Notes: generated by a model from the letters alone, not told the origin. Positions 236 to 60,096 are shown, counted from the stretch's first letter. The stretch is 64,000 bases of DNA from an uncultured Ignavibacteria bacterium (GCA_964399055.1 CAYNPJ010000004.1:11158-75157); one strand, 5' to 3'. Numbers and translations are program-made.

Positions 236-1474
236 TTAAGGTCTCACGACACCTAACTTCCTGAGCAATCTATTCTTACGATAATAAAGGCTTTCCAAAA
301 GTCCGTTTCCTGCCTGTAATGACAAGGAGACATTCAAATTATCAATCGCCCGCTCTACCAGTTTAAGCGCCTGCGGATACTGTCTAATGCGGTGCTCGTA
401 AAATTTGGCTAACTCCAAATAGGGCTCCAGGCAGAATCTATTATTCTCTGTGATTATTTGCCGCCAGATTGCTTCAGCCTTATCCCACTTTGCAGTCCGC
501 TTGTAGAGTCTTCCCAGCCAGAGAAGGCTGTCCATGAAAGAATCCTCGGAAGAGCCTTTCTCCTGAGATTTTTCCCAGCATAGAACAGCTCTCTCATACT
601 GGCCGGAGTAATAGAATTGCCGGCCCAAACTGAGCAAGTCCTCCGGATGTAATATTTCCAATTTTTCTGGTCTTTCCAAAATCTCACATAGATGAGCCAA
701 TAGACCAGCCATGGAGATAATGTCATATGCGTTATGCTCAGTAATAAGTTTAATTTTTTCTCTTTCCCCGCTGCGCAGGAAATCAAAATATGCCTGCGGT
801 ATCAGATAGCTGGGAATATCGAATTCTCTTGCCACTCCTAATATTTCTCTCTCTAAATTAGAGAGGCTGCAATCCTTGACTCTTCTCTTCCACACCCGCC
901 GGGCCGGAAAGAGCAAATCTAAGTGGCCCTCAAATTCCAGAGAGGCCTTGATGCGATTGAGTATGTATCTGGTCTTAAGAATGGGGATGTCGTAACCTTT
1001 GCCGTTATAGGTAACAATGTATGGATAGCTGGATAGCAACTCCGACAAATCGGCCAGCAAAGCTCTTTCCTCCCCATAATCCCGCATGAAAAACTGCCTC
1101 AAAACAAATTTATCAAGAGCAAAGTAGCCGACCCCCACCAGAAAGGGATGAGTGCCGGAGCCGCCCGCCAGGCCGGTAGTTTCGGTGTCTAAAAAGATGG
1201 TTTTGCTCAAATCTATTTCCTGCGAAAGCTGAGTTTTGGCTAAAAGAGTGATAGACCCGGAATCAGCGCTCAACAGGTCAGAAATAACCACCGACCCATG
1301 CTGGTAGGATGGTCTGTATTCCTTCTCAATGAGTACATATTCCCCCTTGGAATTAGAAATCACTCTACCATTCAGGAAATCAACCAGCGAAGAGTCCTTT
1401 TCCACCCTCTCTTTCTTTTCAGTTCTAATTAATCCCAGGCTCTTCAAACTTTGCAAGCGTTCCTGTAAATCCAT
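236..1474 (-). CDS. RNase H-like (DEDD-type, YprB/PF13482-like) predicted 3'-5' exonuclease fused to C-terminal TPR repeats
   Basis: FLDTETTGL exonuclease motif in the N half; TPR-like repeats (WLGRLYKRTAKWDKAEAIWRQ..., AKFYEHRIRQYPQALKLVERAI) in the C half; 5-nt gap to the upstream gene suggests an operon. Confidence 0.6.
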   Translation of the reverse strand: MDLQERLQSLKSLGLIRTEKKERVEKDSSLVDFLNGRVISNSKGEYVLIEKEYRPSYQHGSVVISDLLSADSGSITLLAKTQLSQEIDLSKTIFLDTETTGLAGGSGTHPFLVGVGYFALDKFVLRQFFMRDYGEERALLADLSELLSSYPYIVTYNGKGYDIPILKTRYILNRIKASLEFEGHLDLLFPARRVWKRRVKDCSLSNLEREILGVAREFDIPSYLIPQAYFDFLRSGEREKIKLITEHNAYDIISMAGLLAHLCEILERPEKLEILHPEDLLSLGRQFYYSGQYERAVLCWEKSQEKGSSEDSFMDSLLWLGRLYKRTAKWDKAEAIWRQIITENNRFCLEPYLELAKFYEHRIRQYPQALKLVERAIDNLNVSLSLQAGNGLLESLYYRKNRLLRKLGVVRP

Positions 1475-4412: not shown

Positions 4413-4531
4413 AGAAGGACCTGCCGAAAATAATCCCCCTCCTGAACAAATGTCAACTTTTTTCTCTAAAAAGCAAAAGCCCTCTGACAATCGCCAGAGG
4501 GCCCGCCCTCCTATACTTAGCCCACCCCTCT

Positions 4532-5968
4532 CTAAGTCAGCTGATATTTAGCCATTCTATCTCTTAGAGTGTTCCTGCTCACCCCTAAAATCTTGGCCGA
4601 GCGCAGTTGATTGGACTCAGTCTGCTTCAAAACTTTTTCTATCAGCGCTTTTTCTAAGGCCGAGGAGATGTGGTCATAGATATGCCCGTCGGAATTGTCC
4701 ATAATCTTGCCGAAGACCGGTTCTAAAACTTCGGAAAAAAGCTTGTAGTAATCCTGCTGAATCTTCTGGAAGTCAAAGGGGATTCTCTCCCTGGTGTCGG
4801 AATACAGAGGGAAATGCTCCGGCGCCAAGATTTCTCCCTTGCACATCACCACTGCGGTGTGAATGTTGTTCTCTAATTCGCGCACGTTGCCGGGCCAGTG
4901 GTATCTGCCCAGCATCTCTTGAGCTTCCTTGGAGACGGACCTTATCTCTTTCCCCACCTGCGGGGCGTATTTTTTGAGGAAGTGTTTGGCTAAAACCGGT
5001 ATGTCGACTTTTCTTTCCCTCAAGGGAGGTAAATATATGGAGACCACTTTCAGACGGTAGAACAAATCTACCCTGAATTTGTTGTCTTTTATCAGCTCGA
5101 CTAAACTTTTATTAGTGGCAGCGATTACCCGGACATCCACCTTTATGGTCTCATTCCCCCCCACCCGCTCGAACTCCTGTTCTTGAAGGACGCGTAAGAC
5201 TTTGCTCTGGGTGACTAAGGACATGTCGGCGATTTCGTCCAAGAAAATAGTGCCATTGTGGCATTGTTCGAATTTTCCAATCTTGCGGGCATAGGCGCCG
5301 GTGAAGGCCCCTTTTTCATGGCCGAATAATTCTGATTCAAGTAAAGTCTCTGGCAGGGCCGCGCAGTTGACTGACAAAAAAGCCTTGTCGGCCCGGCGCG
5401 AATTGCGGAAAATGGCCCGGGCTACTAATTCTTTGCCAGTTCCGGATTCCCCCATGATTAATACTGAAGCGTCGGTTTTGGCAACCTGTCCAATTAATTT
5501 GGCTATCTCTACTATTTCCGGAGACTGGCCGATTATTTCATTTTCGCTAAACTCTCCGGGTTTGCCTCCGTTAGGGGCACCAGGCTTGCCCAGGTGTTTT
5601 TCCGAGAGGGCTTTGCGGACTTCACCAGCCACCTTTTCTAAGGTAAAAGGCTTAGTGATATAATCAAAAGCCCCCTCTTTCATAGCTTCGATGGCCGATT
5701 CAGTGGAGACGTAGCCGGTCAGGATAATGACCGGGACCTTGCCGTCAGTGGTCTTTATCTTTCTTAAGACTTCCAAGCCGGACATTCCCGGAAGATTCAA
5801 GTCTAAAAGAACTACGTCGGGCTGAAGTTCCGGTAGTTTGGCTAAGGCATCTTCCCCTTTTTCAAAGGAGAGCAGGCTGAATTCAGGAGGGGCTAAAAAC
5901 TGGGAAAGGGTCCCGCTTACTGCCGGGTCGTCATCAATCAGAAAGACCTTGGGAGTCTGCAGAGTCAT
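4532..5968 (-). CDS. sigma-54-dependent Fis-family response regulator (NtrC-like enhancer-binding protein), orphan with no adjacent kinase
   Basis: Receiver domain (VFLIDDDPAV...LLDLNLPGMSG); Pro/Gly-rich linker (GKPGAPNGGKPG); AAA+ motifs ESGTGKELVARAIF and GAFTGA; C-terminal HTH (KILGVSRNTLRDRMAKY). Confidence 0.9.
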   Translation of the reverse strand: MTLQTPKVFLIDDDPAVSGTLSQFLAPPEFSLLSFEKGEDALAKLPELQPDVVLLDLNLPGMSGLEVLRKIKTTDGKVPVIILTGYVSTESAIEAMKEGAFDYITKPFTLEKVAGEVRKALSEKHLGKPGAPNGGKPGEFSENEIIGQSPEIVEIAKLIGQVAKTDASVLIMGESGTGKELVARAIFRNSRRADKAFLSVNCAALPETLLESELFGHEKGAFTGAYARKIGKFEQCHNGTIFLDEIADMSLVTQSKVLRVLQEQEFERVGGNETIKVDVRVIAATNKSLVELIKDNKFRVDLFYRLKVVSIYLPPLRERKVDIPVLAKHFLKKYAPQVGKEIRSVSKEAQEMLGRYHWPGNVRELENNIHTAVVMCKGEILAPEHFPLYSDTRERIPFDFQKIQQDYYKLFSEVLEPVFGKIMDNSDGHIYDHISSALEKALIEKVLKQTESNQLRSAKILGVSRNTLRDRMAKYQLT

Positions 5969-6158: not shown

Positions 6159-6881
6159 TTACTTCTTACGTCTTAATCTGGCAAAACCGGCTGCACCTAA
6201 GAGGCCGCTGCCAAAGAGAAATAGAGTGGCCGGTTCAGGCACTTCAGGCGGAGTCTCACACAGGTCGGTGCCGTAAACAAATTTGACGTTCCTGATTTTG
6301 GCGCTGGGGTCAAAATAGGAAGAAATGCCGCTCAAGGTGAATACTACCTGATTCTGGATTAGAGCGTTACTTCCAGTAACCGCGGCATTCCCGGAAAATA
6401 AATTATCTGCGGCAGAGGTGATACCGTATTGCAATCCGTCAGGCGAATCAGGGCCTTGCAGATTAGGGCCCGGGAACCTGTCCCCTGACCCGAACAGGCC
6501 AAAGCCGGCAGAGCTTATGCCGTAGCGACCCAATCCATAGTTAGGAAAGCTGGAACTGTACCGAAAAGCCCACTCTCCGCCTACGTTGCCTCCATTAGAA
6601 GGGCCGTAGAATACAGATGAGCCTCCGCCCAGAGCGGCAGAGACCCTGCTTAGAGATGGATTGTACCTAATGTCGAAGAATACCGCGGTAAGCACTTCAT
6701 TGGGTGCCGTGACGTCAGCTGAGGAAGTGTTAGTCAGGGTGATTTGCAGATTTCCACTGACCACAGCAAATATAGCGCTGGCCGCCAGACTGCCACTGGA
6801 CCAGTTGTAAGTGAAAGGCACAGCCAAAGCCGTACCGCTGATTAATAGGGAAAGTAAAATCCCTGCTTTTATGAGCCTCAT
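6159..6881 (-). CDS. PEP-CTERM domain secreted protein (exosortase substrate)
   Basis: N-terminal signal peptide; C-terminal VPEPATLFLFGSGLLGAAGFARLRRKK (PEP motif, TM helix, basic tail); AGGAGG RBS. Confidence 0.9.
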   Translation of the reverse strand: MRLIKAGILLSLLISGTALAVPFTYNWSSGSLAASAIFAVVSGNLQITLTNTSSADVTAPNEVLTAVFFDIRYNPSLSRVSAALGGGSSVFYGPSNGGNVGGEWAFRYSSSFPNYGLGRYGISSAGFGLFGSGDRFPGPNLQGPDSPDGLQYGITSAADNLFSGNAAVTGSNALIQNQVVFTLSGISSYFDPSAKIRNVKFVYGTDLCETPPEVPEPATLFLFGSGLLGAAGFARLRRKK

Positions 6882-7019
6882 TCTCTCCTCCTGCTGGTTA
6901 GCATCCTGTTTATCTTTTTTTTGTTTCAGGGAGCAAGACTCCGCTTGAGTCCCGCTCTTTTTGGTTGTCTGTCTTAGTTATAAATCCTCATGCCATCCTG
7001 TGGCGTAAATCTTCCAGAC

Positions 7020-7658
7020 TTACTTTTTCCGGCGAAGCTTCGAAAATCCGGCTGCGCTTAGGAGTCCGCTGCCTAAGAGTAACATGGTGGCCGGCTCAGG
7101 AATTTCAGGTGTACGTCCTGGACCATACCAAGCAGTGTTTCCGTCAATCTCTTCTCTGTAGTAACCCCAGTCGAGGTGAACCAGGTATTTGGTAGTGGCT
7201 GGATTCAAATTGCATCCAGTGCCATTGAAGTCTGCCACCAGAACATTGGTGCAATCCCCTTTATGAATATAGTCGACTGGTGACCCGGTATGGGTTCCGA
7301 AAACACCTTTGGGTCTTTCGTAGCCGCCGTTGAAGTCCCAGTTGGCTATGGTAGTAACGCCGGCTGTCGTACCCCACCCAGGAACCGCAGCTTCCAAATC
7401 TGGTCCTTGATTACCGTTCTCCAAATAGACCGCAAGGGCTTTAATTCCACCGACGTTAATGATACCGCCAATTGGGGCTCCTGCATCAACGCAGACCTGG
7501 AAGGTCCAGACATTGGCAGGACCCTGAGTGCCCGTTACTGAAACAAAGCTCAAAGTCCCTGCTGAAGCGTTCAGACTTGGCCAGGGGTCAGCGTTTACGG
7601 TTGCTGCTGTCAAAACCAAAACCAGTCCCAGGATTGCCAGCAGAGTTAACTTCTTCAT
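7020..7658 (-). CDS. PEP-CTERM domain secreted protein (exosortase substrate)
   Basis: Start moved to the internal ATG at 7658 (MKKLTLLAILG..., signal peptide) preceded by AAGGAGG; C-terminal IPEPATMLLLGSGLLSAAGFSKLRRKK. Confidence 0.88.
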   Translation of the reverse strand: MKKLTLLAILGLVLVLTAATVNADPWPSLNASAGTLSFVSVTGTQGPANVWTFQVCVDAGAPIGGIINVGGIKALAVYLENGNQGPDLEAAVPGWGTTAGVTTIANWDFNGGYERPKGVFGTHTGSPVDYIHKGDCTNVLVADFNGTGCNLNPATTKYLVHLDWGYYREEIDGNTAWYGPGRTPEIPEPATMLLLGSGLLSAAGFSKLRRKK

Positions 7659-7719
7659 TGATTCCTCCTTAAAGATTTGAATTGGTTTCAAGTTATAATT
7701 CTTCATGCAGAATTAAATC

Positions 7720-7737
7720 AGCAACCGTTATGCCAAT
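7720..7737 (-). promoter_or_regulatory. sigma-54 (RpoN) promoter, -24 TGGCAT / -12 TTGCT, driving the PEP-CTERM genes
   Basis: Reverse complement of 7721-7737 is TTGGCATAACGGTTGCT, matching TGGCAC-N5-TTGCW in spacing and the GG/GC dinucleotides; about 60 nt upstream of the ATG at 7658. Confidence 0.7.
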
Positions 7738-7769
7738 GGCCAGAACTAACCTTCAAAGAGCTAACCTAT

Positions 7770-7782
7770 TGTCATTCTGACA
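7770..7782. promoter_or_regulatory. inverted repeat TGTCA-N3-TGACA, candidate enhancer (UAS) for a sigma-54 activator
   Basis: Perfect IR about 35 bp upstream of the -24 element; a second IR CTGTC-N9-GACAG lies at 7888-7906. Confidence 0.35.
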
Positions 7783-7887
7783 GTTAATTTAAACAACTTA
7801 AAGGCTGACCCCATGCCATTTGTTTGTTTTCCCGACAACCTAAAAACTCATCCTAAGATAAACTCATACAATACATTATATTCCAAC

Positions 7888-7906
7888 TGTCAGGAAAACC
7901 GACAGC
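7888..7906. promoter_or_regulatory. inverted repeat CTGTC-N9-GACAG, second candidate UAS in the divergent PEP-CTERM/exosortase intergenic region
   Basis: Read directly; shares the TGTC/GACA half-sites with the 7770-7782 repeat. Confidence 0.3.
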
Positions 7907-8036
7907 TCTTAAAATACCTCTTCATCTCACTTCAGATTTGTTGCAAGAAGATGCATGATTTACTGAGCAAATCCTCTTGATATGGACTGACTCTTCTCTT
8001 GCCATTTCCTTCCGATAGAATTAATTACAACCGTTG

Positions 8037-8897
8037 ATGGAGACAAAGACTCTGGTTTTTAAACGGCTCTTACGACCCGAAATCCTGTTAATTGGGTTAG
8101 TCCTGGCCTTAATCTATTTTCCTGTCTTTGTAGAGCTCTGGGACGACTGGGAAAGGGATTCTAATTATTCCCACGGCTTCTTAGTGCCTTTGGTCTCCTT
8201 GTTCCTGCTCTGGAAAAAGCGTCGGGAGCTAAGCCAGATTCCTGCTAAACTCTCACCTTTCGGCTTGGCCATCATTGCTGCCGGGCTCTTTCTGCTCATA
8301 GTTGGAACTGCCGGAGCTGAGTATTTTTCGGTCCGACTCTCCTTTGTGGCTCTGATCTTTGGACTGGTCTGGTACTTTGGGGGGGATAAACTGGCAAAAA
8401 GCGCTGCGGTGCCAATCTGGTACCTGGTCTTGGCCATTCCAGTTCCTTATGTGATTTACTTTGCCATGGCTTTTCCCCTTCAGCTTCTGGCCACTAAAGC
8501 GACTGTGGTCCTGCTCCACCTGATGGGCCTACCTTCCATCCGGCAGGGGAACATCATACATCTTCCGGGCTACAGTCTGGAAGTAGTGGAAGCCTGTTCC
8601 GGCTTGCGCTCTTTAATGTCCCTCTTAGCCCTGTCCGGCGTCTATGCCTATTTAACCCAGAAGACTAAACTGAGAAAATTCATTCTCTTTGCCTCTGCGG
8701 TACCGATTGCTCTGGTTGCCAATATCTTTCGAATCATAATCACTGCCTTAGGAGCTTACTTAATCTCACCTAAAATGGCTGAGGATTTCCTGCATGAGCT
8801 TTCCGGCCTGGTGGTCTTCATCATATCTTTTATCTGTCTGTTCATCTTAGGGGAAATATTAAAGCGCATCGGGGCCAAGAAACCGGCTGTCTCTTGA
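8037..8897 (+). CDS. exosortase (PEP-CTERM-processing transpeptidase, Xrt family)
   Basis: Polytopic membrane protein; conserved active-site context EVVEACSGLRSLMS (ACSG Cys motif) and IANIFRII Arg motif; adjacent to two PEP-CTERM genes; the ORF opens at TTG 8034 but the ATG at 8037 is used here. Confidence 0.85.
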   Translation: METKTLVFKRLLRPEILLIGLVLALIYFPVFVELWDDWERDSNYSHGFLVPLVSLFLLWKKRRELSQIPAKLSPFGLAIIAAGLFLLIVGTAGAEYFSVRLSFVALIFGLVWYFGGDKLAKSAAVPIWYLVLAIPVPYVIYFAMAFPLQLLATKATVVLLHLMGLPSIRQGNIIHLPGYSLEVVEACSGLRSLMSLLALSGVYAYLTQKTKLRKFILFASAVPIALVANIFRIIITALGAYLISPKMAEDFLHELSGLVVFIISFICLFILGEILKRIGAKKPAVS

Positions 8898-8932
8898 CCT
8901 TTCCGGCTCTTCTGCTTTAGTTTGATTTTAAT

Positions 8933-9859
8933 ATGCCTATTTTCAAACTTGCGGAGCTAAACTATCAGGACCTGGAAAAACTCTCGCCCGGTAAAACCGT
9001 CTTTTTTATAGTGATTTCCCCTTTAGAGGAGCATGCTCCCCACCTGCCAGTGGGGACTGACCTCTATATTGCCCGGTATTTTGCCCACCGGTGCGCTGAA
9101 GAGCTAATCCAGAGCCGTCCGGAGTGGAATGTGGTCTTAACCCTTCCCATTCCGGTCGGAGCCAATGTCTTCGAATTCAAAGGCTCGGTCCGACATTCCA
9201 TTCGGACAGTTTATGACGTATTATTAAGTTACGGGAAGGCCATCGCTGAGTGGGGGTTTAAAAACTTGGTCATCATCTCGTCGCATGGCGGAGCCGGACA
9301 CATCTCAGTTTTGGAAGAAGCAGCAATAAGAATCTCCAAAAAGTATAAAATCAAGGCCATCTCTCTTACCGGGGTAATTGCGATTGATTTTCTACAGGGT
9401 AAGTACACCGAACAGATACAGAATGCACTTTACAAGCGTCTGGACGATGAGGACCTCAAACATCTAAAATATGATTACCATGCCGGCTGGTGGGAGACCT
9501 CCATGATGCTTTTGATAAAGCCGGAATTGGTCAGGGAAGAATACAAAGAGCTCCCGCCGGTCCTGATTGAAAGCCCCCTGCAACTGAGAGCCGATGCGGC
9601 CTTGAAATTAGGACAGGGCCTGGGATATTTCGGCACCCCCTCTTTTGCGGATGTTAAGTTGGCTGAGGCATCTTCCAAAGTACTGCTAAGTGAGGGAATG
9701 AAGATTCTGTACCGGTTCTTGGATGGGGAGGATGTGAGCAAGGAAACGCAATCCATTATCTTTAAAAGCTTACTATTCCGCAGAGATTTTTTGAGACTTG
9801 CAATTTCGCTGGCAATTTTTCTTCTTATTCTGATTCTTCTTCTTATCAAATCACTCTAA
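8933..9859 (+). CDS. creatininase-family amidohydrolase (creatinine amidohydrolase/MftE-like fold) with a C-terminal transmembrane anchor
   Basis: Metal-binding motifs LEEHAPHLPVGTD and SSHGGAG typical of the creatininase family; hydrophobic C-terminus LAISLAIFLLILILLLI. Confidence 0.6.
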   Translation: MPIFKLAELNYQDLEKLSPGKTVFFIVISPLEEHAPHLPVGTDLYIARYFAHRCAEELIQSRPEWNVVLTLPIPVGANVFEFKGSVRHSIRTVYDVLLSYGKAIAEWGFKNLVIISSHGGAGHISVLEEAAIRISKKYKIKAISLTGVIAIDFLQGKYTEQIQNALYKRLDDEDLKHLKYDYHAGWWETSMMLLIKPELVREEYKELPPVLIESPLQLRADAALKLGQGLGYFGTPSFADVKLAEASSKVLLSEGMKILYRFLDGEDVSKETQSIIFKSLLFRRDFLRLAISLAIFLLILILLLIKSL

Positions 9860-9975
9860 AACGCTAGATTTTCAATAGCATCAATTCGCTTTCGAGCATT
9901 GTGCAACTCCTTGCACATTCTCTGCTAAACCCTACAGGTTTAAACCCCGACCTCGGATTCTTTGTCACAAAATCT

Positions 9976-9989
9976 AACCGATTTCGGTT
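9976..9989. promoter_or_regulatory. perfect 14-bp palindrome AACCGATTTCGGTT about 110 bp upstream of the sugar-transferase sigma-54 promoter; candidate UAS
   Basis: Read directly; sits in an AT-rich non-coding stretch at the spacing typical of enhancer-binding-protein sites. Confidence 0.35.
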
Positions 9990-10097
9990 TTCTCTCATTT
10001 TTTATAACCTCAAGCTAATTAAGGGATTAGCTAAACGAAGGAACATCTTTATTTTCACATTTTCGACAATATATATATATTTTTCCTCCCCTCCCAG

Positions 10098-10113
10098 TGG
10101 CAGTAGTTTTGCT
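10098..10113 (+). promoter_or_regulatory. sigma-54 promoter TGGCAG-N5-TTGCT upstream of the sugar transferase
   Basis: Plus-strand TGGCAGTAGTTTTGCT with exact GG-N10-GC spacing; lies inside the nominal ORF 9901..11127, whose N-terminal ~75 codons are low-complexity and AT-rich, so it is probably a leader. Confidence 0.6.
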
Positions 10114-10188
10114 ATTGACATAAGTCAAGTTGTAGATGCCGTAAGTTTAACACCCCTTAACAGAGATCGGAAGGTTGGGATAATAGAA

Positions 10189-11127
10189 TTGATAGAGATT
10201 AATATAAGTACAGCTAAACCTGCAGAATCCGGGCAGAAAATTTCTGCTCGCCGGCTAAATCCTGCAGCCAACGGTAGCAATGGCAATGGAAACGGGTCTG
10301 GCCGTCAGAATGGCAGCAACGGCAATGGCTCTGCGCTGACGTCTCGCTATTCCGAACAGGTATTATCCAACGTTTATTTAGCTTCTTACGTTTTCTATAC
10401 CTTTCTGAGAGGCCTGGATGGCGCTCAGCCGGAGGTAAAATTCACGACCCGTCTGAGGTTATCCTGCAAAAGAGTCCTGGATGTATTACTCTCCGGAATG
10501 GGCTTGATTCTGCTCTCGCCACTCTTTTTAATGCTGGCGGTATTAATCAAACTAGATTCAGAGGGGCCGGTTTTTTACAAACAAGAGAGAATCGGGCAGA
10601 ACCGGCGCAAAGGTGACCGGAGACGCTTTCAGTTTGATATGAGCAGCGACCGGCGCTTAAACCGTAACCGGCGACGCGAAGATTATTTTGGGGTGCCGTT
10701 CACAGTTTATAAATTCAGGACCATGCACAAGGACGCCGAGAAAAAGTGTGGGCCTATCTGGGCTACCAAAGACGACCCCCGGGTGACCAGAATTGGCCGT
10801 CTGCTGCGTAAGACCAGATTGGATGAGCTTCCTCAGCTCTGGAATGTGTTTAAAGGGGAAATGTCCCTGGTGGGTCCCCGACCGGAAAGACTTTATTTTG
10901 TCCGCAAATTAGCTCCCCAGGTCAGGAATTATACCATGAGACTTACTTTCAAGCCCGGCATAACCGGACTGGCTCAAGTCGAAAAAGGGTATGACTCCAG
11001 CGTGGGTGACGTTAATAAGAAATTAAAATACGACTTACTATATATTAACAACTGGAGCCTGTGGAAAGATATAAAGATTCTGGTTAAGACCACTCTGGTT
11101 GTGATAACCGGAAAGGGTGCTTTTTAA
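10189..11127 (+). CDS. polyprenyl-phosphate (undecaprenyl-phosphate) sugar phosphotransferase, 'bacterial sugar transferase' family (PglC/WbaP C-domain/EpsB-like); start uncertain
   Basis: KRVLDVLLSGMGLILLSPLFLMLAVLIKLDSEGPVFYKQERIG...YKFRTM...VGPRPE...GITGLAQV. The ORF track starts at GTG 9901, but a sigma-54 promoter at 10098 and no in-frame ATG before 10498 suggest TTG 10189 or ATG 10498 as the start. The product contains an unusual ~29-aa Arg-rich insertion. Confidence 0.75.
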   Translation: MIEINISTAKPAESGQKISARRLNPAANGSNGNGNGSGRQNGSNGNGSALTSRYSEQVLSNVYLASYVFYTFLRGLDGAQPEVKFTTRLRLSCKRVLDVLLSGMGLILLSPLFLMLAVLIKLDSEGPVFYKQERIGQNRRKGDRRRFQFDMSSDRRLNRNRRREDYFGVPFTVYKFRTMHKDAEKKCGPIWATKDDPRVTRIGRLLRKTRLDELPQLWNVFKGEMSLVGPRPERLYFVRKLAPQVRNYTMRLTFKPGITGLAQVEKGYDSSVGDVNKKLKYDLLYINNWSLWKDIKILVKTTLVVITGKGAF

Positions 11128-11148
11128 GCTGAATTTTTCAGGAGAGTG

Positions 11149-11178
11149 AGCCAGGGATAAAGCCCTGGCTTTTTTATT
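11149..11178 (+). terminator. rho-independent terminator after the sugar transferase
   Basis: AGCCAGGG-ATAAA-GCCCTGGCT followed by TTTTTTATT. Confidence 0.75.
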
Positions 11179-11187
11179 AAAAACTCC

Positions 11188-11216
11188 TTGCCATACCACA
11201 GGTTAAATCTTATACT
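11188..11216 (+). promoter_or_regulatory. sigma-70-like promoter TTGCCA-N17-TATACT for the PEGA-FN3-membrane-prsK-prsR operon
   Basis: -35 at 11188-11193 and -10 at 11211-11216; about 34 nt upstream of the ATG at 11250. Confidence 0.5.
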
Positions 11217-11249
11217 AACCTTCGCTTTTTGAAAGCCGAATAATAGCAT

Positions 11250-11975
11250 ATGAAACGGTTTGGCATTATTGCCCTGATTTTGACATTAGCCGCGGCAAGT
11301 ACAATTTGGGCTCAGGAAGACACCGCCCAGGTTACTCTGCGTATAACCTCCAATCCTCCGGGCGTTACCGTTAATCTGGATGGACCTTACCAACTCACGA
11401 CCACGACTCCATCTGACATTACCCAGGAGTTAATGGGAACTTACAGAGTCAAAGCTGAAAAATTCGGATATGAGTCCTGGAACTCCTACATCACTTTGAC
11501 ACCGGACCAGCCTGCCAGTTTGAGGATATCACTTTCGCCCAAGACCAGAATCAAAGCCGCCTTCAGGTCGGTACTCCTTCCTGGCTGGGGACAGTTTTAC
11601 AGTGATCGAAAGGGATGGGGATATTTCTTCGCGACCGGAAGCCTGGTCATGGCGACCGGTTTTGTTCTGGCGGATTTGCACTACAGCAATGAATATGATG
11701 ATTACTTGGACGCCAAAAAAGAATTCGAAGAGGCCGTCAGTATCGAAGAGAAGACTAAGCTGAAAGAGAAGCTGGATGACCGGCAGAGCAAGGCTTACGA
11801 TGCCCAGAAGTTAAGAAATGCGGCCCTCGGGGTGGGTATCGCCTTCTGGGCTTACAATGTGCTGGATAATATAATCTTCTTCCCTTCGGTACAGAGTGGC
11901 GTATTTGAGAAACTATCGACGGACTTTGACCCCAATACCGGGCAGGTCAGGCTGACCTACAATTACTCTTTCTGA
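11250..11975 (+). CDS. PEGA-domain membrane protein (signal peptide, PEGA domain, TM segment, coiled region)
   Basis: VTLRITSNPPGVTVNLDG...YRVKAEKFGYESW matches the PEGA consensus; hydrophobic helices follow. Confidence 0.55.
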   Translation: MKRFGIIALILTLAAASTIWAQEDTAQVTLRITSNPPGVTVNLDGPYQLTTTTPSDITQELMGTYRVKAEKFGYESWNSYITLTPDQPASLRISLSPKTRIKAAFRSVLLPGWGQFYSDRKGWGYFFATGSLVMATGFVLADLHYSNEYDDYLDAKKEFEEAVSIEEKTKLKEKLDDRQSKAYDAQKLRNAALGVGIAFWAYNVLDNIIFFPSVQSGVFEKLSTDFDPNTGQVRLTYNYSF

Positions 11976-11987
11976 AACTTACAAGAG

Positions 11988-13541
11988 ATGAAGAAACTCC
12001 TTTCGGTCTTTTTAATCATAGGCTTGGGCTTAATCTTCTTAAATTGTGAGCGGAAGCTGAAAGACTCTACAGGTCCTGCTTTAAATCTCAATCCGCCACC
12101 CACCCCCAAGAACATAGTTCTGGAAATTGGAGATAAGACCATAAAGCTCAGCTGGAGCGTGGACAGCTTGAACGGCATCAGCTATTTTAAGATTTACCGC
12201 TCTGACTCAGTCGGAGTGGAGCCAAAGTTATACGATTCTACGGCCACTGCCATTACGACCTATACAGACCTGGGACTCAAGAATGGCCAGGAATACTTCT
12301 ATCGAATTAGCTCGGTGGCGACGGACAAATTGGAAGGGTACAAATCGGTCAAGGTCAGCGCTGTTCCTAATCTTTTTGCAGTAACGATAAACAGCGGGGC
12401 TAAATACACTAACAATCGCAGCGTCACTATCGGACTGACCGGTGCCAGCAATACCCGGCATGTGATTATTTCGGAAGATTCTCTTTTCGGAGACGCCTCC
12501 TGGCAGACTTTTTCAGGTTCCAAGAGTTTCACCCTTTCTTTCACCGATGGAACCAAGTATGTCTACGCCAGGTTCCGGGACCAGGACGGCAATGAGAGCT
12601 CTGATTTATACTGGGATGACATAATCCTAGACACCCAGGCCAGCATTAGCAGTGTGACCGAGAATACTGCCGGACAGATTAGACAGGCCGGCCAGATAAT
12701 CCATTTTGCGGTAACCGCCGGAGAGACAGAGGGGACGGCCAGGCTCGATTTGGGGACGGTCAGAGACATAGGGCTCTTTGACGACGGCACTCACGGAGAT
12801 GCCTCTGCCAATGACGGCATCTATGAGCTGGATTACATAATTCCCGCTGATGTAGAAATTGCCGATGCTGTGGTTACAGGGGAATTCACTGACGCAGCCG
12901 GCAATCAGGCGCCATCTAAAACTGCCACAGGCCGGGTGACCATTGCCAAAGCCCCGGGGCCGGTGAATTTATTCGCCCCTTTTGCTGTCCCTAATTCTTA
13001 TAGTTCCATCACCTTAAACTGGTCGACCAGCAATGAGAGCGATTTCTCAGTTTATCGCATCTACCGCTCCACATCTTCCGGAGTGGACTTAAATGACACT
13101 TTGATTGCCAACCTTACCAATAAGTCTACTACAACCTATACGGATACGGCTTTATTTGAAAACACCTGGTACCATTATCGAGTCTTTGTCTTTGATGCCA
13201 ACAACCTCTCTGCTGGTTCGAATGAAGACTCGGCTCGCACCAATCAGAACACTCCGCCGACAGCGGTAGTCTTAGCCACGCCCTCCAGGGTCGATTCCAC
13301 CAGCCTGAAATTGGTGTGGACTCAGAATAGCGACCCTGACTTTGATTCTTATCGGATTTACCGCTCAGTCTCTGCCGGGGTGGATACTCTGGATATGTTG
13401 ATTACAGTAGTCAATCAGGCCGGTACCACCGAATATACTGATGAGAATCTGACAACCGGTCAAAATTATTTCTATCGAGTCTTTGTATTTGATCGCAAAG
13501 GACTTTTTACAGGCTCTAATGAAGTCTCTGCTGCACCCTAG
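11988..13541 (+). CDS. secreted/lipoprotein with three fibronectin type-III domains
   Basis: Signal peptide with Cys (IFLNCERK); recurring FN3 signatures (YFYRISSV, WYHYRVFVFD, YFYRVFVFD). Confidence 0.65.
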   Translation: MKKLLSVFLIIGLGLIFLNCERKLKDSTGPALNLNPPPTPKNIVLEIGDKTIKLSWSVDSLNGISYFKIYRSDSVGVEPKLYDSTATAITTYTDLGLKNGQEYFYRISSVATDKLEGYKSVKVSAVPNLFAVTINSGAKYTNNRSVTIGLTGASNTRHVIISEDSLFGDASWQTFSGSKSFTLSFTDGTKYVYARFRDQDGNESSDLYWDDIILDTQASISSVTENTAGQIRQAGQIIHFAVTAGETEGTARLDLGTVRDIGLFDDGTHGDASANDGIYELDYIIPADVEIADAVVTGEFTDAAGNQAPSKTATGRVTIAKAPGPVNLFAPFAVPNSYSSITLNWSTSNESDFSVYRIYRSTSSGVDLNDTLIANLTNKSTTTYTDTALFENTWYHYRVFVFDANNLSAGSNEDSARTNQNTPPTAVVLATPSRVDSTSLKLVWTQNSDPDFDSYRIYRSVSAGVDTLDMLITVVNQAGTTEYTDENLTTGQNYFYRVFVFDRKGLFTGSNEVSAAP

Positions 13542-13544
13542 GCC

Positions 13545-14390
13545 ATGAACTGGCTTTACAAGCTCAATAATTTCTTTCGCATCTGGGGAGCTACCTTTAA
13601 AGCCATGGGAAAGCTCAAAATCTGGCTCCCCTTGCTAATTCTGCTGATATTGCAGATACTGGTTCTTTTTCAATTAGTCAGATTCTATCAGCCCCAGGTC
13701 TCCTGGCTTTTGGTTCCTTTGTTTAAGTTGATTGCCAGCGAAAGAGCGCTGCACTACCCTCAGTTTTATTTGGCTCTTCCCTATTTGTATAACCTTTTTA
13801 ACTTAGTCCTGATTGGCTTTTTTAGCATTTTTGTCAACGCCCTGGTCATCTGGCTCCTGTCTTCACATTTCTGGGGGAAGAAACTTAGCTACAAGGAGGC
13901 CTGGCAGAACACCAGAACCAGATTCGGACATCTGTTTTTAATCTGGTTTTTTAATACCTTGGTGGCCGCTCTAATTCTGATTCTTCCCGGAGTCTTATTT
14001 TCCAACTGGATGTCCGGCTCTCCCCGGCGGACCTTTTTCATTCAAGCGGCAAGTTTTGGCGCTGGAGTTTTGGTCTCCGGACTTTTCGCCTACTGCTATA
14101 ACTCTATCTTACTTTCCGGGGACGCCTGGCTCAAATCCCTATCAACCAATTTCAGAATTTTCCAGCGCAACTTTTTCTCCACCTGTTTTTTTATTGGCAT
14201 TCCCGGATTGTTGTCCTGGGGTTACGGCATCCTGACCAGCAATACGCCTTTGATAATGTCCAAATTCAGGCCCGACATAGTGCCAGTGCTTTTAGTAATC
14301 GGCTCGGTCATAAATCTTTTGGTGGTCTTCTGGATTTTAGGCTCTTTAGCCCGGCTCTTTCTGTATGAGGTAAAAGAGGTTCAGTTGTGA
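13545..14390 (+). CDS. polytopic integral membrane protein, unknown function
   Basis: Multiple hydrophobic helices; translationally coupled between the FN3 protein and prsK. Confidence 0.5.
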   Translation: MNWLYKLNNFFRIWGATFKAMGKLKIWLPLLILLILQILVLFQLVRFYQPQVSWLLVPLFKLIASERALHYPQFYLALPYLYNLFNLVLIGFFSIFVNALVIWLLSSHFWGKKLSYKEAWQNTRTRFGHLFLIWFFNTLVAALILILPGVLFSNWMSGSPRRTFFIQAASFGAGVLVSGLFAYCYNSILLSGDAWLKSLSTNFRIFQRNFFSTCFFIGIPGLLSWGYGILTSNTPLIMSKFRPDIVPVLLVIGSVINLLVVFWILGSLARLFLYEVKEVQL

Positions 14391-14393
14391 GTT

Positions 14394-16514
14394 ATGTCAG
14401 TTCTCTTTGCCGTAATCGCCAGCCTGACCTTAATCTTCGCCGTAGTAGTACTCCTCCGCAATCCTAAAGAGCTTTCCTTTTGGGCTTTTTTTCTCACCGG
14501 CCTATTCTGGGTCTCAATTTTAGCCGGCATTCTGTTTTCACTGCGCTGGGAGTTTCCTCTCTGGGGCTCTGCTCTTCTGGCTCTGGGGATTAGTTTCCTG
14601 CCCTCCCAGGGGACTTTTTTCAGTTTCTGCTTTGCCAGAGAAAATGTCCGGGAACTGTTAAAGCGCTGGCAGTGGTTTCTGGGGCTGACTTACGCCTTCA
14701 GTATAGTTTTTTTCATCTTAGCCCTGCAGGGGAAAGTTTACGCCTTAGGAGTCGGGGAAGTCGAAGGAAAACTGCTATTGGCCTATACCAATCCGGGACG
14801 GCTCTTTCTGGCTTTCCTCTTCTTGACTACTCTGGTCAGCTTAGTCAATTTGGAAAACACTTATCGTCTATCCAAGGGTAAAGAGCGCTCCCGCTTAAAA
14901 TTGCCTCTCACTCTGTCGGTCTCTGCTTACGCCTGGTTGATTTATTCTCTGACCAGTTCCTTCGTATTGGGCTATCTGCAATACTGGGTTTTGCAGGTGG
15001 GTTTTCTCTTAATCTTGGCGGCTCTGATTTCAACCGGCGTTTATCAGCTCAAACAGAGCACTCATCTGCCGGCAATCTATATGGGGCGGAGACTGGCTTA
15101 TTCCTCAGCCGCTTTTGTGCTGGTGGGACTCTACTTAGTCTTCATCGGCCTGGTGGCCAGTTTCATACCCAAACTGGGCGGGAATTTGCAGATTTTCATC
15201 TCGGTCTTAGCCGCCCTGATGGTCTTGATTGTACTGGTAATCTTGGCCTTCTGGGAGACCTGGAGAAAGAGGCTGGAGCATTTGCTGGAAAGGCTTCTCT
15301 ATCCGGGTAAATTCGATTTTCGCGAGGAGTGGAAGAGATTTTCTGAAAATATCTCGGCTCTGCTGGATTCGGGTGAAATTCAAAAAGAGACCGACAAGGT
15401 CATCCGGGAGAATTTGCGGGTCGACCAGTTGGCAGTATATTCCCGCACCAGCAGGAACAGCGATTTGAGAATCACGCATCACTCCTCAGGCAACTATGAC
15501 CAGCCGCCGGCCCTGCCGCCGGAGGACCCTTTCTGGGGCTGGCTTCTGCGCTATGGGGAGACAGTAGAGAAGAGGCAGATAGAAAGGCTGTTGGAAACTT
15601 ATGCCAGCGGCTCTCAGATTAAACATATTTTAGAGCAGACTAAAGGTGAGGTTATAACTCCCTTGATCGCCAACCGGGAGCTGGAAGGGATGATTATCCT
15701 CTCAGACAAGGAAGAGCAGGAGGCTTATACTAACGAAGATTTCGATCTGTTAAATGCCATCTCCGGACAGGCCGCTCTAGCCCTGTTGAATGCCCGGGTA
15801 GGGCAGGAACTGATTTTAAGCAAGGAGATGGAGTCCTTTCACAAATTTGCGGCCTTTGTGGTTCATGACCTGAAGAATTCCATCTCCATGCTCTCTATGC
15901 TTTTGGCCAATGCCCAGGGGAATCTGAATAACCCTCAGTTTCTGGCCAGCGCCTTGGAGACGGTGGACCAGGCAGTCAAAAAAATGAAGACCCTGGCAGA
16001 TAAACTCTCCTCCCCGCCGGAAGGCAGCACCTTAGTGTTAAGGCAAACGGATTTGAATCAGGTCTGGCAGATGGCGGCCCGGGATTTAAAATTGGAGCTG
16101 CTGCCGAACATAAAAGTGGAGTGGCAGTTAGGCGAGTTACCTCTGGTCAACTGCGACCAGGTTCAGTTGGAGAAGGTCTTTCAGAATCTGTTTTTGAATG
16201 CGGTGGAGGCTATGCCTAAGGGAGGTTCGATTAGAGTTACCACTCAATTCTTTGAGAATCAGAATCATCTTCCGGAAGTACGGATGAGCGTCCGGGATAA
16301 CGGAGTCGGCCTAAGCCCGGAATATCTGCGCACCCGTTTATTCCAGCCCTTTGCCTCCACCAAGAAGTCCGGCTTGGGCATAGGTCTGTTTCAGTCTAAG
16401 GAGATTGTTGAACAACACGGAGGCAGAATCTGGGTGGAGACCTGCGAGGGCAAAGGAACCGTTTTTTACATCACCCTGCCAGTGAAAGCAACAGCAGCAC
16501 CGGTAAACAAGTAG
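14394..16514 (+). CDS. prsK: PEP-CTERM system sensor histidine kinase (PrsK family)
   Basis: About 8 N-terminal TM helices, a GAF-like domain, HisKA (FAAFVVHDLKNSIS) and HATPase_c (GLGIGLFQSKEIVEQHGGRIWVE); immediately upstream of the sigma-54 regulator. Confidence 0.8.
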   Translation: MSVLFAVIASLTLIFAVVVLLRNPKELSFWAFFLTGLFWVSILAGILFSLRWEFPLWGSALLALGISFLPSQGTFFSFCFARENVRELLKRWQWFLGLTYAFSIVFFILALQGKVYALGVGEVEGKLLLAYTNPGRLFLAFLFLTTLVSLVNLENTYRLSKGKERSRLKLPLTLSVSAYAWLIYSLTSSFVLGYLQYWVLQVGFLLILAALISTGVYQLKQSTHLPAIYMGRRLAYSSAAFVLVGLYLVFIGLVASFIPKLGGNLQIFISVLAALMVLIVLVILAFWETWRKRLEHLLERLLYPGKFDFREEWKRFSENISALLDSGEIQKETDKVIRENLRVDQLAVYSRTSRNSDLRITHHSSGNYDQPPALPPEDPFWGWLLRYGETVEKRQIERLLETYASGSQIKHILEQTKGEVITPLIANRELEGMIILSDKEEQEAYTNEDFDLLNAISGQAALALLNARVGQELILSKEMESFHKFAAFVVHDLKNSISMLSMLLANAQGNLNNPQFLASALETVDQAVKKMKTLADKLSSPPEGSTLVLRQTDLNQVWQMAARDLKLELLPNIKVEWQLGELPLVNCDQVQLEKVFQNLFLNAVEAMPKGGSIRVTTQFFENQNHLPEVRMSVRDNGVGLSPEYLRTRLFQPFASTKKSGLGIGLFQSKEIVEQHGGRIWVETCEGKGTVFYITLPVKATAAPVNK

Positions 16515-16523
16515 TTTGAGAAA

Positions 16524-17885
16524 ATGGACCGGGATAAGATTCTCATTGTAGACGACGAAGAGGGAATCCGCACTCAACTTGCCTGGGCTCTGTCTGCGGA
16601 ATACCGAGTCTTGCAGGCTGACTCGGCAGCGCCAGCCTTGGATATAGTCCGGGCAGAGAACCCGAATCTAATCTTGCTGGATTTAGCCTTAAGCACCACT
16701 CAGGCCGAGCCGGATGGATTGGAACTCTTGGGAACTTTTCTGGAGAAAGACCCCTTTTTGAAAGTCATTATGATCACCGGCCATGATGAAAAGCCCAATG
16801 CTTTGGAGGCCATTAAAAAGGGGGCTTACGACTTTTACGCCAAACCCATCGACTTAGATGAAATTAAAATCATCATAAAGCGGGCTCTCTACATCCAGAA
16901 ATTGGAAAAAGAGAACCGGCAATTAGCTGAAGAGTTAGAGAGTAAACAAAAATTTGAGGAAATCATTGGCACCTCAGAGAAGATGGAGCAGATTTACCGG
17001 ACCGTTTCCAGGGTTGCCCCCACTGATGCCACAGTTCTGGTAGTGGGAGAATCCGGCACCGGCAAGGAACTGATAGCCAGAGCCATTCACAGCCTGTCAC
17101 CCCGTAGTTCCAAGCCTTTTGTCACCATCAACTGCGGGGCTATTCCGCCCAATCTTTTGGAATCCGAGCTCTTTGGTCACGAAAAGGGAGCCTTTACTGA
17201 CGCCCACATCCAGCGCAAGGGGAGGTTCGAAATGGCTGAAGGCGGGACAATTTTCTTAGATGAAATCGGCGAACTCTCTCTGCCCCTGCAGGTCAAGATT
17301 CTGAGGTTTTTGCAGGAAAAAGAGATTGAACGAGTGGGAGGCCGGGAGCCAATTTACGTGGATGCCAGGGTTCTGGCGGCGACAAACAAGGCGCTGCTGG
17401 AAGAGGTCAAGCTGAAAACCTTCAGAGAAGACCTTTATTACCGGCTCAGTGTAATTACCATTAATCTTCCCTCTTTAAAAGAGAGGGGTCAGGACATATT
17501 GCTTTTGGCCCACACCTTTTTGAGCCGTTTTTCGGCAGAATACAACAAAAGCAAGCTGACTTTTAGTCCTGCGGCCGAGAGGGCCCTTTTAGCCTATCCC
17601 TGGCCCGGCAACGTGCGCGAGCTGGAGAACAAAGTCAAACGGGCGGTAATTTTAAGCCTGGGAAATAAGATTACTCCCTATGATTTGGGACTGGAACAAG
17701 AGTCCGGAGGCAAGAGGCCAACCCTGCAGGAGCTGCGGGAGCAAGTAGAGAGTCAGTTCATTCAGGAAACGCTCCAGCGCCATCAGGGGAACGTCACCAA
17801 CGCTGCTAAAGAATTAGGGGTTAGCCGGACTACTCTTTATGATATCATGGAGAAGTACAAGATTAAAAGAGAGTCTTTGGATTAA
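16524..17885 (+). CDS. prsR: PEP-CTERM-box sigma-54-dependent response regulator (PrsR family)
   Basis: Receiver domain (ILIVDDEEGIR...LLDLAL); AAA+ motifs GESGTGKELIARAIH and GAFTDA; C-terminal HTH. Confidence 0.85.
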   Translation: MDRDKILIVDDEEGIRTQLAWALSAEYRVLQADSAAPALDIVRAENPNLILLDLALSTTQAEPDGLELLGTFLEKDPFLKVIMITGHDEKPNALEAIKKGAYDFYAKPIDLDEIKIIIKRALYIQKLEKENRQLAEELESKQKFEEIIGTSEKMEQIYRTVSRVAPTDATVLVVGESGTGKELIARAIHSLSPRSSKPFVTINCGAIPPNLLESELFGHEKGAFTDAHIQRKGRFEMAEGGTIFLDEIGELSLPLQVKILRFLQEKEIERVGGREPIYVDARVLAATNKALLEEVKLKTFREDLYYRLSVITINLPSLKERGQDILLLAHTFLSRFSAEYNKSKLTFSPAAERALLAYPWPGNVRELENKVKRAVILSLGNKITPYDLGLEQESGGKRPTLQELREQVESQFIQETLQRHQGNVTNAAKELGVSRTTLYDIMEKYKIKRESLD

Positions 17886-29959: not shown

Positions 29960-30409
29960 TTACTTTCCGGATATAGTAATCGGAATCTCTTTGGGCTTCA
30001 CTTCTTCAGCCTTGGGTAATTCCACCCGCAGGATTCCATTCTCGTAAGCCGCCTTAATCTTATCCGCCTTGACCATAGTAGGCAGACTGAAGGAGCGGGT
30101 GAAGAAGCCGTAGTTCCGCTCGAGGCGGTGATAATTAGTATCTTTATCCTCTTTCTCCTGGTGCTTCTCACCCCGGATAGTGAGGATGTTATCCTGGACC
30201 GAAACCTTGATGTCGTCTCTCTTCATTCCAGGGAGTTCTAACGAGACCACCACATCATCCTTAGTCTCGTAGATGTCAGTGGCCGGAAGCCACATCCCAC
30301 CATCTTCTATCTGGCGAGTTCCCCGGTCGAAGAAGCCTTCGAACATCCGGTTAACTTCATCCTGTAGATTGTACAGGTCTCTAAATGGTCTCCATCTTAC
30401 TAACGTCAT
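29960..30409 (-). CDS. Hsp20/alpha-crystallin family small heat-shock protein
   Basis: Alpha-crystallin domain (VSLELPGMKRDDIKVSVQDNILTIRGEK...GILRVELPK); AGGAGG RBS. Confidence 0.9.
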   Translation of the reverse strand: MTLVRWRPFRDLYNLQDEVNRMFEGFFDRGTRQIEDGGMWLPATDIYETKDDVVVSLELPGMKRDDIKVSVQDNILTIRGEKHQEKEDKDTNYHRLERNYGFFTRSFSLPTMVKADKIKAAYENGILRVELPKAEEVKPKEIPITISGK

Positions 30410-30450
30410 TTCATGTTCCTCCTTTCTGTCATTTTTGCACTACTATGAAA

Positions 30451-30465
30451 GCAAGTAGTATGCCA
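30451..30465 (-). promoter_or_regulatory. sigma-54 promoter TGGCAT-N5-TTGCT directly upstream of hsp20
   Basis: Reverse complement of 30451-30465 is TGGCATACTACTTGC(T); same -24/-12 hexamers as the PEP-CTERM promoter; contains the ACTACT/AGTAGT inverted repeat. Confidence 0.6.
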
Positions 30466-46195: not shown

Positions 46196-46224
46196 GACAA
46201 CCTCCTATTTATTTAGGACTATTC

Positions 46225-47034: not shown

Positions 47035-47063
47035 TTTCCCCTCTTGAAATACACCGTTGCTTG

Positions 47064-48399: not shown

Positions 48400-48419
48400 G
48401 TTTCCTCCATCGAAAGTCC

Positions 48420-48448
48420 AATATAATAGCTTCTCCAGCTGAGTTCAA
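48420..48448 (-). promoter_or_regulatory. sigma-70-like promoter TTGAAC-N17-TATATT upstream of CoA-transferase A
   Basis: Reverse complement of 48420-48448; a perfect 6-bp IR GTGCCG-N12-CGGCAC lies just upstream at about 48451-48474. Confidence 0.4.
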
Positions 48449-48466
48449 CCCTGAGTGCCGATTCTG

Positions 48467-49012: not shown

Positions 49013-49020
49013 TTTTCCTC

Positions 49021-50765: not shown

Positions 50766-50774
50766 TTTTTAATA

Positions 50775-60094: not shown

Positions 60095-60096
60095 TC

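Follow-up and report, generated by a model that had tools for sequence, protein, structure and literature searches.

Exosortase systems are widespread in environmental bacteria, and to our knowledge the acceptor of the exosortase transfer is not known in any of them. Here, we describe a PEP-CTERM/exosortase locus with a PrsK/PrsR two-component pair, located at positions 6159 to 17885 of a 64-kb stretch of DNA (64,000 nucleotides [nt]; GCA_964399055.1 CAYNPJ010000004.1:11158-75157) from an uncultured bacterium deposited as a member of the Ignavibacteria. We refer to the whole of this stretch as the window and count all positions from its first letter. We consider it reasonably probable that the locus encodes a working sorting system built from three modules with separate evolutionary histories, which would be an exosortase with its cargo proteins, a gene cassette that recurs in other genomes, and a tail-anchored protein of the creatininase family.

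The closest described systems are the XrtA-type PEP-CTERM systems with PrsK, PrsR, and PrsT (PMC1569441; models TIGR03109, TIGR02916, and TIGR02915). In the study of Haft et al. (2006), proteobacterial PEP-CTERM genes were found to have a large upstream region and a -24/-12 element at a mean distance of 71 nt from the start codon; the authors linked that sigma-54 promoter type to PrsK/PrsR and gave an upstream motif (motif 1) for Proteobacteria only (PMC1569441). The floc-forming systems of Zoogloea and Aquincola combine PepA and RpoN1 with PrsK, PrsR, and PrsT, lie beside large exopolysaccharide clusters, and require PrsT; the RpoN-dependent promoter of Aquincola pepA has been mapped by experiment (PMC9850573).

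The window locus resembles the XrtA-type systems in the invariant Cys, Arg, and His residues of the exosortase and in its cargo proteins, each with a signal peptide and with a PEP motif that is followed by a hydrophobic helix and a basic tail. Like them, it has PrsK and PrsR in tandem, a cargo gene with a sigma-54 -24/-12 promoter some 60 nt upstream, and a nearby transferase of the Bac_transf family. It differs from them in having no EpsI (adjacent or fused), no PrsT that we could find, and no large exopolysaccharide locus. Moreover, its transferase fails the model for the transferase of the XrtA system (EpsB_2, TIGR03013; 237.4 bits against a cutoff of 393.35), its exosortase scores barely over the XrtA cutoff, and motif 1 is unseen. 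Its partners are a PEGA/DUF5683 protein, an FN3 lipoprotein, and a CysZ-like membrane protein, and its phylum is assigned here as Zixibacteria (FCB group) rather than Proteobacteria. This assignment follows the organism names that homologues carry, and the DNA is part of a metagenome assembly. With the Zoogloea and Aquincola systems, it shares a small sigma-54-driven PEP-CTERM protein accompanied by PrsK/PrsR; however, the window has a single priming transferase, itself behind a sigma-54 promoter, and flocculation is not assignable to it. Overall, the PEP-CTERM/exosortase system with PrsK/PrsR belongs to a known class, and what is new is a subgroup, among Zixibacteria and related lineages, that lacks EpsI and is accompanied by an uncurated cassette. 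A literature search for exosortase together with Zixibacteria or creatininase found no paper, and the combination with PEGA returned only unrelated work on gellan biosynthesis.

Genes of the sorting locus

All ten open reading frames (ORFs) that an earlier reading of this DNA (here, the original prediction) had assigned to the locus are present, with start codons revised where noted below:

6159 to 6881, minus strand: PEP-CTERM cargo protein 1, XDD4 family; signal peptide; tail VPEPATLFLFGSGLLGAAGFARLRRKK; matched by NF045504, TIGR02595, and PF07589
7020 to 7658, minus strand: PEP-CTERM cargo protein 2, 212 amino acids (aa); tail IPEPATMLLLGSGLLSAAGFSKLRRKK; N-terminal domain without classification
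8037 to 8897, plus strand: exosortase, XrtA-like, without EpsI; PF09721, TIGR02602, TIGR03109; contains VEACSGLRSL
8933 to 9859, plus strand: creatininase-family metallo-amidohydrolase, tail-anchored by a C-terminal transmembrane helix; PF02633
10189 to 11127, plus strand: priming polyprenyl-phosphate glycosyl-phosphotransferase (Bac_transf); TIGR03025, PF02397; first listed as an ORF from GTG 9901
11250 to 11975, plus strand: secreted PEGA and DUF5683 protein; PF08308, 40.7 bits; PF18935, 41.8 bits
11988 to 13541, plus strand: FN3-repeat putative lipoprotein with a choice-of-anchor-X motif; PF00041, 58 bits; NF041940, 31.8 bits
13545 to 14390, plus strand: 280-aa polytopic membrane protein with the motif GExALHYP; undescribed family
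14394 to 16514, plus strand: PrsK sensor histidine kinase; polytopic N-terminal domain, GAF (GAF_3), HATPase_c
16524 to 17885, plus strand: PrsR sigma-54-dependent response regulator; TIGR02915

Both cargo proteins have a signal peptide and a C-terminal tail made of a PEP motif, a hydrophobic helix, and a basic cluster, as read from their sequences. Both tails exceed the cutoffs of the PEP-CTERM models TIGR02595 (25.5 bits for cargo 1 and 23.8 bits for cargo 2, cutoff 16) and PF07589 (28.6 and 24.8 bits, cutoff 20.7), and cargo 1 matches the XDD4 model NF045504 over its full length (220 bits, cutoff 40). For cargo 2, the gene caller places the start at ATG 7658, with a ribosome-binding site just before the codon, and this start is most likely the correct one rather than 7706. 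As the original prediction had noted, two PEP-CTERM tails are visible; the count applies to the 64-kb window, which is part of the genome.

The protein encoded at 8037 to 8897 matches the exosortase models PF09721 (247 bits) and TIGR02602 (213.5 bits, cutoff 105.6) and the exosortase signature model TIGR04178 (78.8 bits); its start is most likely ATG 8037, in preference to 8034. In an alignment of 20 exosortases, Cys187, Arg232, and His253 are invariant. The protein scores 211.4 bits against the XrtA model TIGR03109, 3 bits above the cutoff of 208, and the scores for the exosortase (N-terminal) halves of XrtW and XrtD lie near this value (204 and 203.6 bits). PrsK and PrsR both exceed the cutoffs of their equivalog models (TIGR02916, 334.7 bits, cutoff 300; TIGR02915, 571.3 bits, cutoff 502.6), which bears out the central claim of the original prediction, a PEP-CTERM/exosortase locus with a PrsK/PrsR pair.

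The same prediction had called the locus complete, which is more than can be claimed, given that PrsT and EpsI were not found, the EpsB_2 model is not matched, and there is one glycan-synthesis gene. For the PrsT TPR lipoprotein (TIGR02917), there was no match when 30 window proteins were searched against NCBIfam at E cutoffs of 1e-2 to 1e-10, with the ORFs at 45002 to 62795 and the rest of the genome outside the scan. The absence of EpsI had been predicted correctly: profile searches found none among the ten proteins, and tblastn with the EpsI of L089 as the query found no match in the window (contigs carrying homologues are cited here by such numbers). With this query, 56 of 83 sampled relatives show an EpsI gene directly 3' of the exosortase, and none is found in L082, L087, L088, L090, L091, or L175. 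In a neighbor-joining tree of 75 exosortases, all seven enzymes linked to the cassette described below cluster together, within the radiation of EpsI-linked enzymes. Based on these comparisons, the cassette-linked, EpsI-less exosortases appear to be a coherent and new subgroup.

The transferase scores 304.3 bits against TIGR03025 (cutoff 295.6) and 229 bits against PF02397. The ORF first listed for it (9901 to 11127) encodes 408 aa, and its first 96 codons hold the conserved sigma-54 element at 10098 to 10113. Because relatives are 264 to 324 aa long and a conserved promoter lies inside the extension, we consider about 96 codons at the 5' end of the listed ORF to be surplus; translation probably begins at TTG 10189, for a protein of about 312 aa. 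The gene models of the original prediction hold as ORFs, but GTG 9901 is too far upstream for the transferase start. Within the protein, a low-complexity stretch of Asn, Gly, and Ser (window positions 10240 to 10330) lies ahead of the membrane helix in the N-terminal region, and an arginine-rich insertion is present at about residues 226 to 255 of the listed ORF, with the Bac_transf domain split into two matched pieces.

The creatininase gene starts 35 nt past the exosortase gene. Its product matches PF02633 over the full length (131.3 bits, gathering score 31.3) and reaches no equivalog model, the best NCBIfam match being MftE (56.8 bits, cutoff 172); the nearest solved structures are creatinine amidohydrolases (E of about 1e-11). 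Residues E32, H34, D43, H118, H183, and E188 are invariant across 22 homologues. We take these to be the metal-ligand and catalytic-histidine positions of creatininases, and because they are invariant, the enzyme is probably active. The protein has no signal peptide and carries basic residues ahead of its C-terminal helix, so its catalytic domain is predicted to be cytoplasmic, on the side of the transferase active site and opposite the expected exosortase cleavage. Compared to creatinine amidohydrolase, MftE, ArfB, and IolN, the window protein keeps the full-length domain and the bimetal-binding positions but differs by its C-terminal membrane anchor, its link to a priming glycosyl-phosphotransferase, and its failure to reach any equivalog.

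No family in NCBIfam or Pfam matched the 280-aa protein in profile searches. Its own family comprises 263 clusters (50% identity) at E ≤ 1e-3, of which the best 150 are mostly about 265 to 300 aa long, and the motif GExALHYP is common to 32 aligned members. An AlphaFold model built with 32 sequences (pLDDT 93.7) has a predicted CysZ/choline-transporter-like fold, which suggests a transporter-like protein. It differs from CysZ and the choline-transporter-like proteins (SLC44, Pns1) in sequence (8 to 9% identity, with no sequence model matching) and in gene context, which is an envelope/glycan cassette and not sulfate or choline metabolism. A word-indexed protein search with the family alignment returned nine proteins, all close relatives except one alignment member on a 1.7-kb contig; the gene contexts of distant members were obtained via sequence-cluster look-ups.

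Related loci and the three modules

According to the original prediction, this gene composition has no obvious precedent. That description fits the absence of EpsI and the accessory genes, which neither NCBIfam nor Pfam curates as exosortase partners, but it does not fit the gene order from the transferase to PrsR, which recurs in relatives and in distant lineages. In part or whole, the order Bac_transf, PEGA/DUF5683, FN3, 280-aa protein, PrsK, PrsR (here, the cassette) is found in L082, L087, L088, L090, L091, and L171 to L175.

The closest matches to the window are L082 and L087. L082 has an identical gene order, with proteins 68 to 87% identical to those of the window (70% for the cargo 1 orthologue), and L087 (Zixibacteria RBG_16_50_21) has the same order with an extra FG-GAP gene and one cargo gene, its proteins being 64 to 83% identical; cargo 2 has orthologues in both. 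The exosortases of L088 and L175 are 54 to 56% identical to that of the window. In these two contigs, the order is PorV-like outer-membrane protein, exosortase, Bac_transf, PEGA/DUF5683, FN3, and 280-aa protein, with no creatininase gene, and in L088 the genes that follow the 280-aa gene encode PrsK, PrsR, a PEP-CTERM protein, and a second sigma-54 activator. L090 and L091 resemble L088 and L175 in having the exosortase and the cassette without the creatininase gene.

Distant members of the 280-aa family (25 to 30% identical) occupy the same cassette. L173 carries a PorV/PorQ-family gene, Bac_transf, PEGA/DUF5683, FN3, the 280-aa protein, PrsK (317 bits), PrsR (570 bits), and a second activator, and neither an exosortase nor a PEP-CTERM tail was found within 14 kb. 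L171 and L172 have the cassette and a second activator, without exosortase, PrsK, or PrsR in the available DNA. L174 spans PEGA through PrsR, and its contig begins just upstream of this part. The PrsK and PrsR proteins of L173 and L174 are above the equivalog cutoffs. The FN3 protein of L174 has 722 aa; those of the other cassette loci range from 511 to 524 aa. The Zixibacteria contigs L083 to L085 retain only the creatininase (61 to 67% identical), the transferase, and the second activator, and the remnant in L083 and L084 occupies the same chromosomal neighborhood as the window locus, beside FtsY and SMC.

From this series of contigs, we interpret the locus as a probable mosaic of an exosortase with cargo, a recurring cassette, and a tail-anchored creatininase. 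The cassette appears to be an old unit, and the exosortase-plus-cargo module seems to have joined it in one lineage group only.

The original prediction had included the creatininase gene in the system. This does not apply to such systems in general, as the cassette loci L088, L090, L091, and L171 to L175 are without it. In L083 to L085, the gene adjoins the transferase without exosortase, cargo, PEGA/FN3, or PrsK/PrsR. Further afield, exosortase and Bac_transf genes are both absent within 10 kb of 14 membrane-anchored homologues that are 35 to 40% identical and come from phyla such as Acidobacteriota, Methylomirabilota, and Cloacimonadota. These contexts suggest that the creatininase gene accompanies the transferase in a lineage-specific manner, and its product probably modifies the sugar or lipid-linked substrate of the transferase rather than the cargo. 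We also considered a general tie of the membrane-anchored subfamily to exosortases or sugar transferases and rejected it, because the surroundings of the distant homologues are without them.

Three side observations concern the neighbors of these modules. In L087, the creatininase gene and the transferase are separated by the gene for a 449-aa FG-GAP repeat protein (11913 to 13262), which makes this junction a variable spot. A PorV/PorQ-family beta-barrel gene lies directly 5' of the exosortase or transferase in L088 (8540 to 9520), L171 (5337 to 6278), L173 (694 to 1614; NF033709, 167 bits), and L175 (5857 to 6837); the window has no counterpart at that position, and the protein may be an outer-membrane component of the cassette. 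Finally, a conserved gene of 450 to 520 aa lies upstream of distant membrane-anchored creatininase homologues in L003, L009, L010, L014, and L033 (Acidobacteriota, Methylomirabilota), and at least one copy has an acyltransferase domain (PF01553), a hint that this creatininase subfamily acts on a lipid-related substrate.

Predicted sigma-54 promoters and candidate activators

The original prediction mentioned neither the sigma-54 elements nor the second activator in the following list, which also includes two hairpins:

4532 to 5968, minus strand: second sigma-54 enhancer-binding response regulator, NtrC-like, 478 aa
6104 to 6127, minus strand: terminator-like hairpin 3' of the XDD4 gene; 10-pair stem, then a T-rich tail
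7720 to 7735, minus strand: sigma-54 (-24/-12) promoter-like element TGGCATAACGGTTGCT, 61 nt 5' of the cargo 2 start codon; one mismatch
10098 to 10113, plus strand: sigma-54 promoter-like element TGGCAGTAGTTTTGCT, 5' of the transferase, inside the over-extended ORF; one mismatch
11148 to 11171, plus strand: terminator-like hairpin directly 3' of the transferase stop; 9-pair stem, then TTTTATT

A scan of the whole window with the sigma-54 consensus gave 31 matches against 29 expected, which is chance level, and such matches gain meaning only from their position and their conservation across loci. Five have a single mismatch, and two of these stand out by position, one at cargo 2 and one at the transferase. 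The cargo-gene element occupies the same place in L082, L087, and L088, where the L088 copy is a perfect match, so that an element lies 54 to 64 nt 5' of a cargo gene in four of four loci. This placement agrees with the layout reported by Haft et al. (PMC1569441) and with the mapped pepA promoter of Aquincola (PMC9850573). An element of the type TGGCA-N6-TTTGC (up to two mismatches) is present 5' of the transferase in 12 of 12 loci checked, namely the window and L082, L083, L085, L087, L088, L090, L091, L171, L172, L173, and L175; the background at this stringency is 0.095 matches per kb of strand. Both predicted promoters are supported by this conservation, and the pairing of activator and promoter is one that we infer. 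Sigma-54 control of the priming transferase, as predicted here, is new.

We found no sigma-54 element 5' of the XDD4 gene and no terminator between it and the cargo 2 gene. Because no terminator separates the two genes and a hairpin follows XDD4, they are probably cotranscribed. On the opposite strand, a hairpin directly follows the transferase stop codon, and the transferase may thus be a single-gene sigma-54 unit.

The second activator scores 468.6 bits against the ntrC model and 401.3 bits against TIGR02915, both under the cutoff, and is therefore not PrsR. Its orthologues (56 to 87% identical) adjoin the transferase or the cassette in L082, L083, L085, L087, L088, L171, L172, and L173. Because loci without PrsR (L083, L085, and L171) still combine the transferase promoter with the second activator, we regard this activator as a candidate for driving that promoter.

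Several other features lie near these elements. A conserved block that differs from motif 1, TAATGTATTGTA, is found near 7868 to 7885, about 135 to 150 nt upstream; it was considered as an activator site and could equally be the -10 region of a divergent exosortase promoter. The inverted repeat AGCTAAT-N6-ATTAGCT (10014 to 10033), considered as an activator site common to both promoters, was rejected, as it is not conserved in L082. Next to the second activator are genes for a 1,003-aa secreted protein with a long glycine/aspartate-rich repeat region and C-terminal HEAT repeats (1479 to 4490, minus strand) and, adjoining it, an RNase_H_2/TPR protein (236 to 1474, minus strand). In L082 and L085, both again adjoin the second activator; in L083 and L087, this is seen for the RNase_H_2 protein. 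Farther away, the sigma-54-like sequence TGGCATACTACTTGCT (30450 to 30465, minus strand; one mismatch) lies 41 nt 5' of an Hsp20-family gene (29960 to 30409, minus strand) that is flanked by dnaK and a BamB-like gene and may be another sigma-54-dependent gene here. The window also contains a bacterial class A RNase P RNA at 62754 to 63096 on the minus strand (Rfam RF00010, 289.6 bits), and no tRNA genes were found in it.

Proposed mechanism and alternative explanations

In the mechanism that we propose, PrsK would sense an envelope signal and phosphorylate PrsR, and PrsR, the second activator, or both would turn on the sigma-54 promoters of cargo 2 and the transferase. The cargo proteins would be exported by Sec and then anchored in the inner membrane through the PEP-CTERM helix and the RRKK tail. 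Reasoning from sortase and archaeosortase, we propose that the exosortase, divergently transcribed from the cargo genes, cuts at PEP and hands the protein to an envelope acceptor. The most likely role of the cassette is the synthesis or handling of a lipid-linked envelope glycan, which would be a possible acceptor or a matrix, and the cassette would regulate both itself and the cargo; the creatininase-family enzyme would tailor the substrate of the transferase. Among relatives whose locus proteins are 54 to 92% identical, the cargo tails, the catalytic residues, and both promoters are conserved.

Several points weigh against this interpretation. Gene neighborhood alone connects the glycan cassette to sorting, and all of the functions are predicted. 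The cassette is present without an adjacent exosortase in L171 to L173, so it may act independently. The locus encodes a single glycan-synthesis enzyme, without a polymerase, an exporter, or a flippase from any known family. Only two PEP-CTERM cargo proteins are visible in the window, the XrtA assignment of the exosortase is marginal, and the neighbor-joining tree carries no bootstrap support. In addition, the upstream regions inspected did not show motif 1, the proteobacterial PrsR site that ends in TTTACA and lies about 63 nt ahead of the sigma-54 element.

The alternative that survives best, which we rate as unlikely while giving it real weight, is that the adjacency is coincidental: the cassette would be a self-contained envelope/glycan system beside which an exosortase and its cargo have landed, and PrsK/PrsR would govern the cassette only. 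In L171, L172, and L173, the cassette has a PorV/PorQ-like gene directly 5' of the transferase and no exosortase or PEP-CTERM tail in 14 to 20 kb; however, L171 to L174 are metagenome contigs, and an exosortase could sit elsewhere in the genome. Likewise, L083 to L085 retain a sigma-54-driven transferase without an exosortase, and the transferase promoter co-occurs more consistently with the second NtrC-like activator than with PrsR, but the cargo genes share the promoter class of the transferase. Among the exosortases closest to that of the window and with readable downstream DNA, those of L082, L087, L088, L090, L091, and L175 have the cassette next to them and cluster together, the exception being L089, where EpsI follows. 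Finally, TIGR02916 and TIGR02915 are curated by NCBI as XrtA/PEP-CTERM equivalogs, and Haft et al. reported that these proteins track PEP-CTERM genomes (PMC1569441), which argues against their governing the cassette only.

A different possibility concerns the creatininase-family protein, which might be an integral processing enzyme, such as a peptidase acting on the cleaved PEP-CTERM anchor peptide to trim or recycle it. MftE, a member of the creatininase family, trims a peptide C-terminus, and it is the best NCBIfam match of the window protein, though far under the cutoff. The short distance to the exosortase gene makes cotranscription probable, the protein is membrane-anchored, and the position of the gene is kept in L082 and L087. 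Nevertheless, we find this role improbable. The exosortase-plus-cassette loci L088, L090, L091, and L175 are without the gene; in L083 to L085 it has no exosortase and always adjoins the transferase; and the 14 anchored relatives from other phyla lack both partners, with some lying beside an acyltransferase-domain gene. The protein is also predicted to be on the side of the membrane opposite exosortase cleavage. That the locus is a decaying remnant that may no longer sort proteins is very improbable: it has two cargo genes in 64 kb, no EpsI, no PrsT found, and one glycan gene, L083 to L085 have clearly lost most of the locus, and according to Haft et al., genomes with at most two PEP-CTERM proteins may be degenerate (PMC1569441), but all of the locus ORFs are intact, the conservation described above covers catalytic residues, both tails, and both promoters, and the window is only part of the genome.

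We return to the reading of the locus as a working three-module sorting system, which has a more specific form that we advance tentatively and regard as doubtful. Here, the cassette would be the acceptor pathway of the exosortase: the transferase would make a lipid-linked sugar, the 280-aa protein would carry it through the membrane, its presentation would fall to the PEGA/DUF5683 and FN3 proteins, and the EpsI-less exosortase would attach PEP-CTERM proteins to this sugar, with the creatininase tailoring the sugar in the lineage of the window. If this is true, the compact gene set makes the attachment target of an exosortase directly testable.

The locus reveals no new kind of system. It belongs to a compact, previously undescribed EpsI-less subgroup in which the exosortase lies beside a single, tightly regulated priming transferase and three conserved envelope proteins, and it extends the predicted control of PEP-CTERM genes by PrsK/PrsR and sigma-54 beyond Proteobacteria, to the FCB-group phylum Zixibacteria. 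It also offers a small, defined gene set for probing the link between protein sorting and glycan handling.

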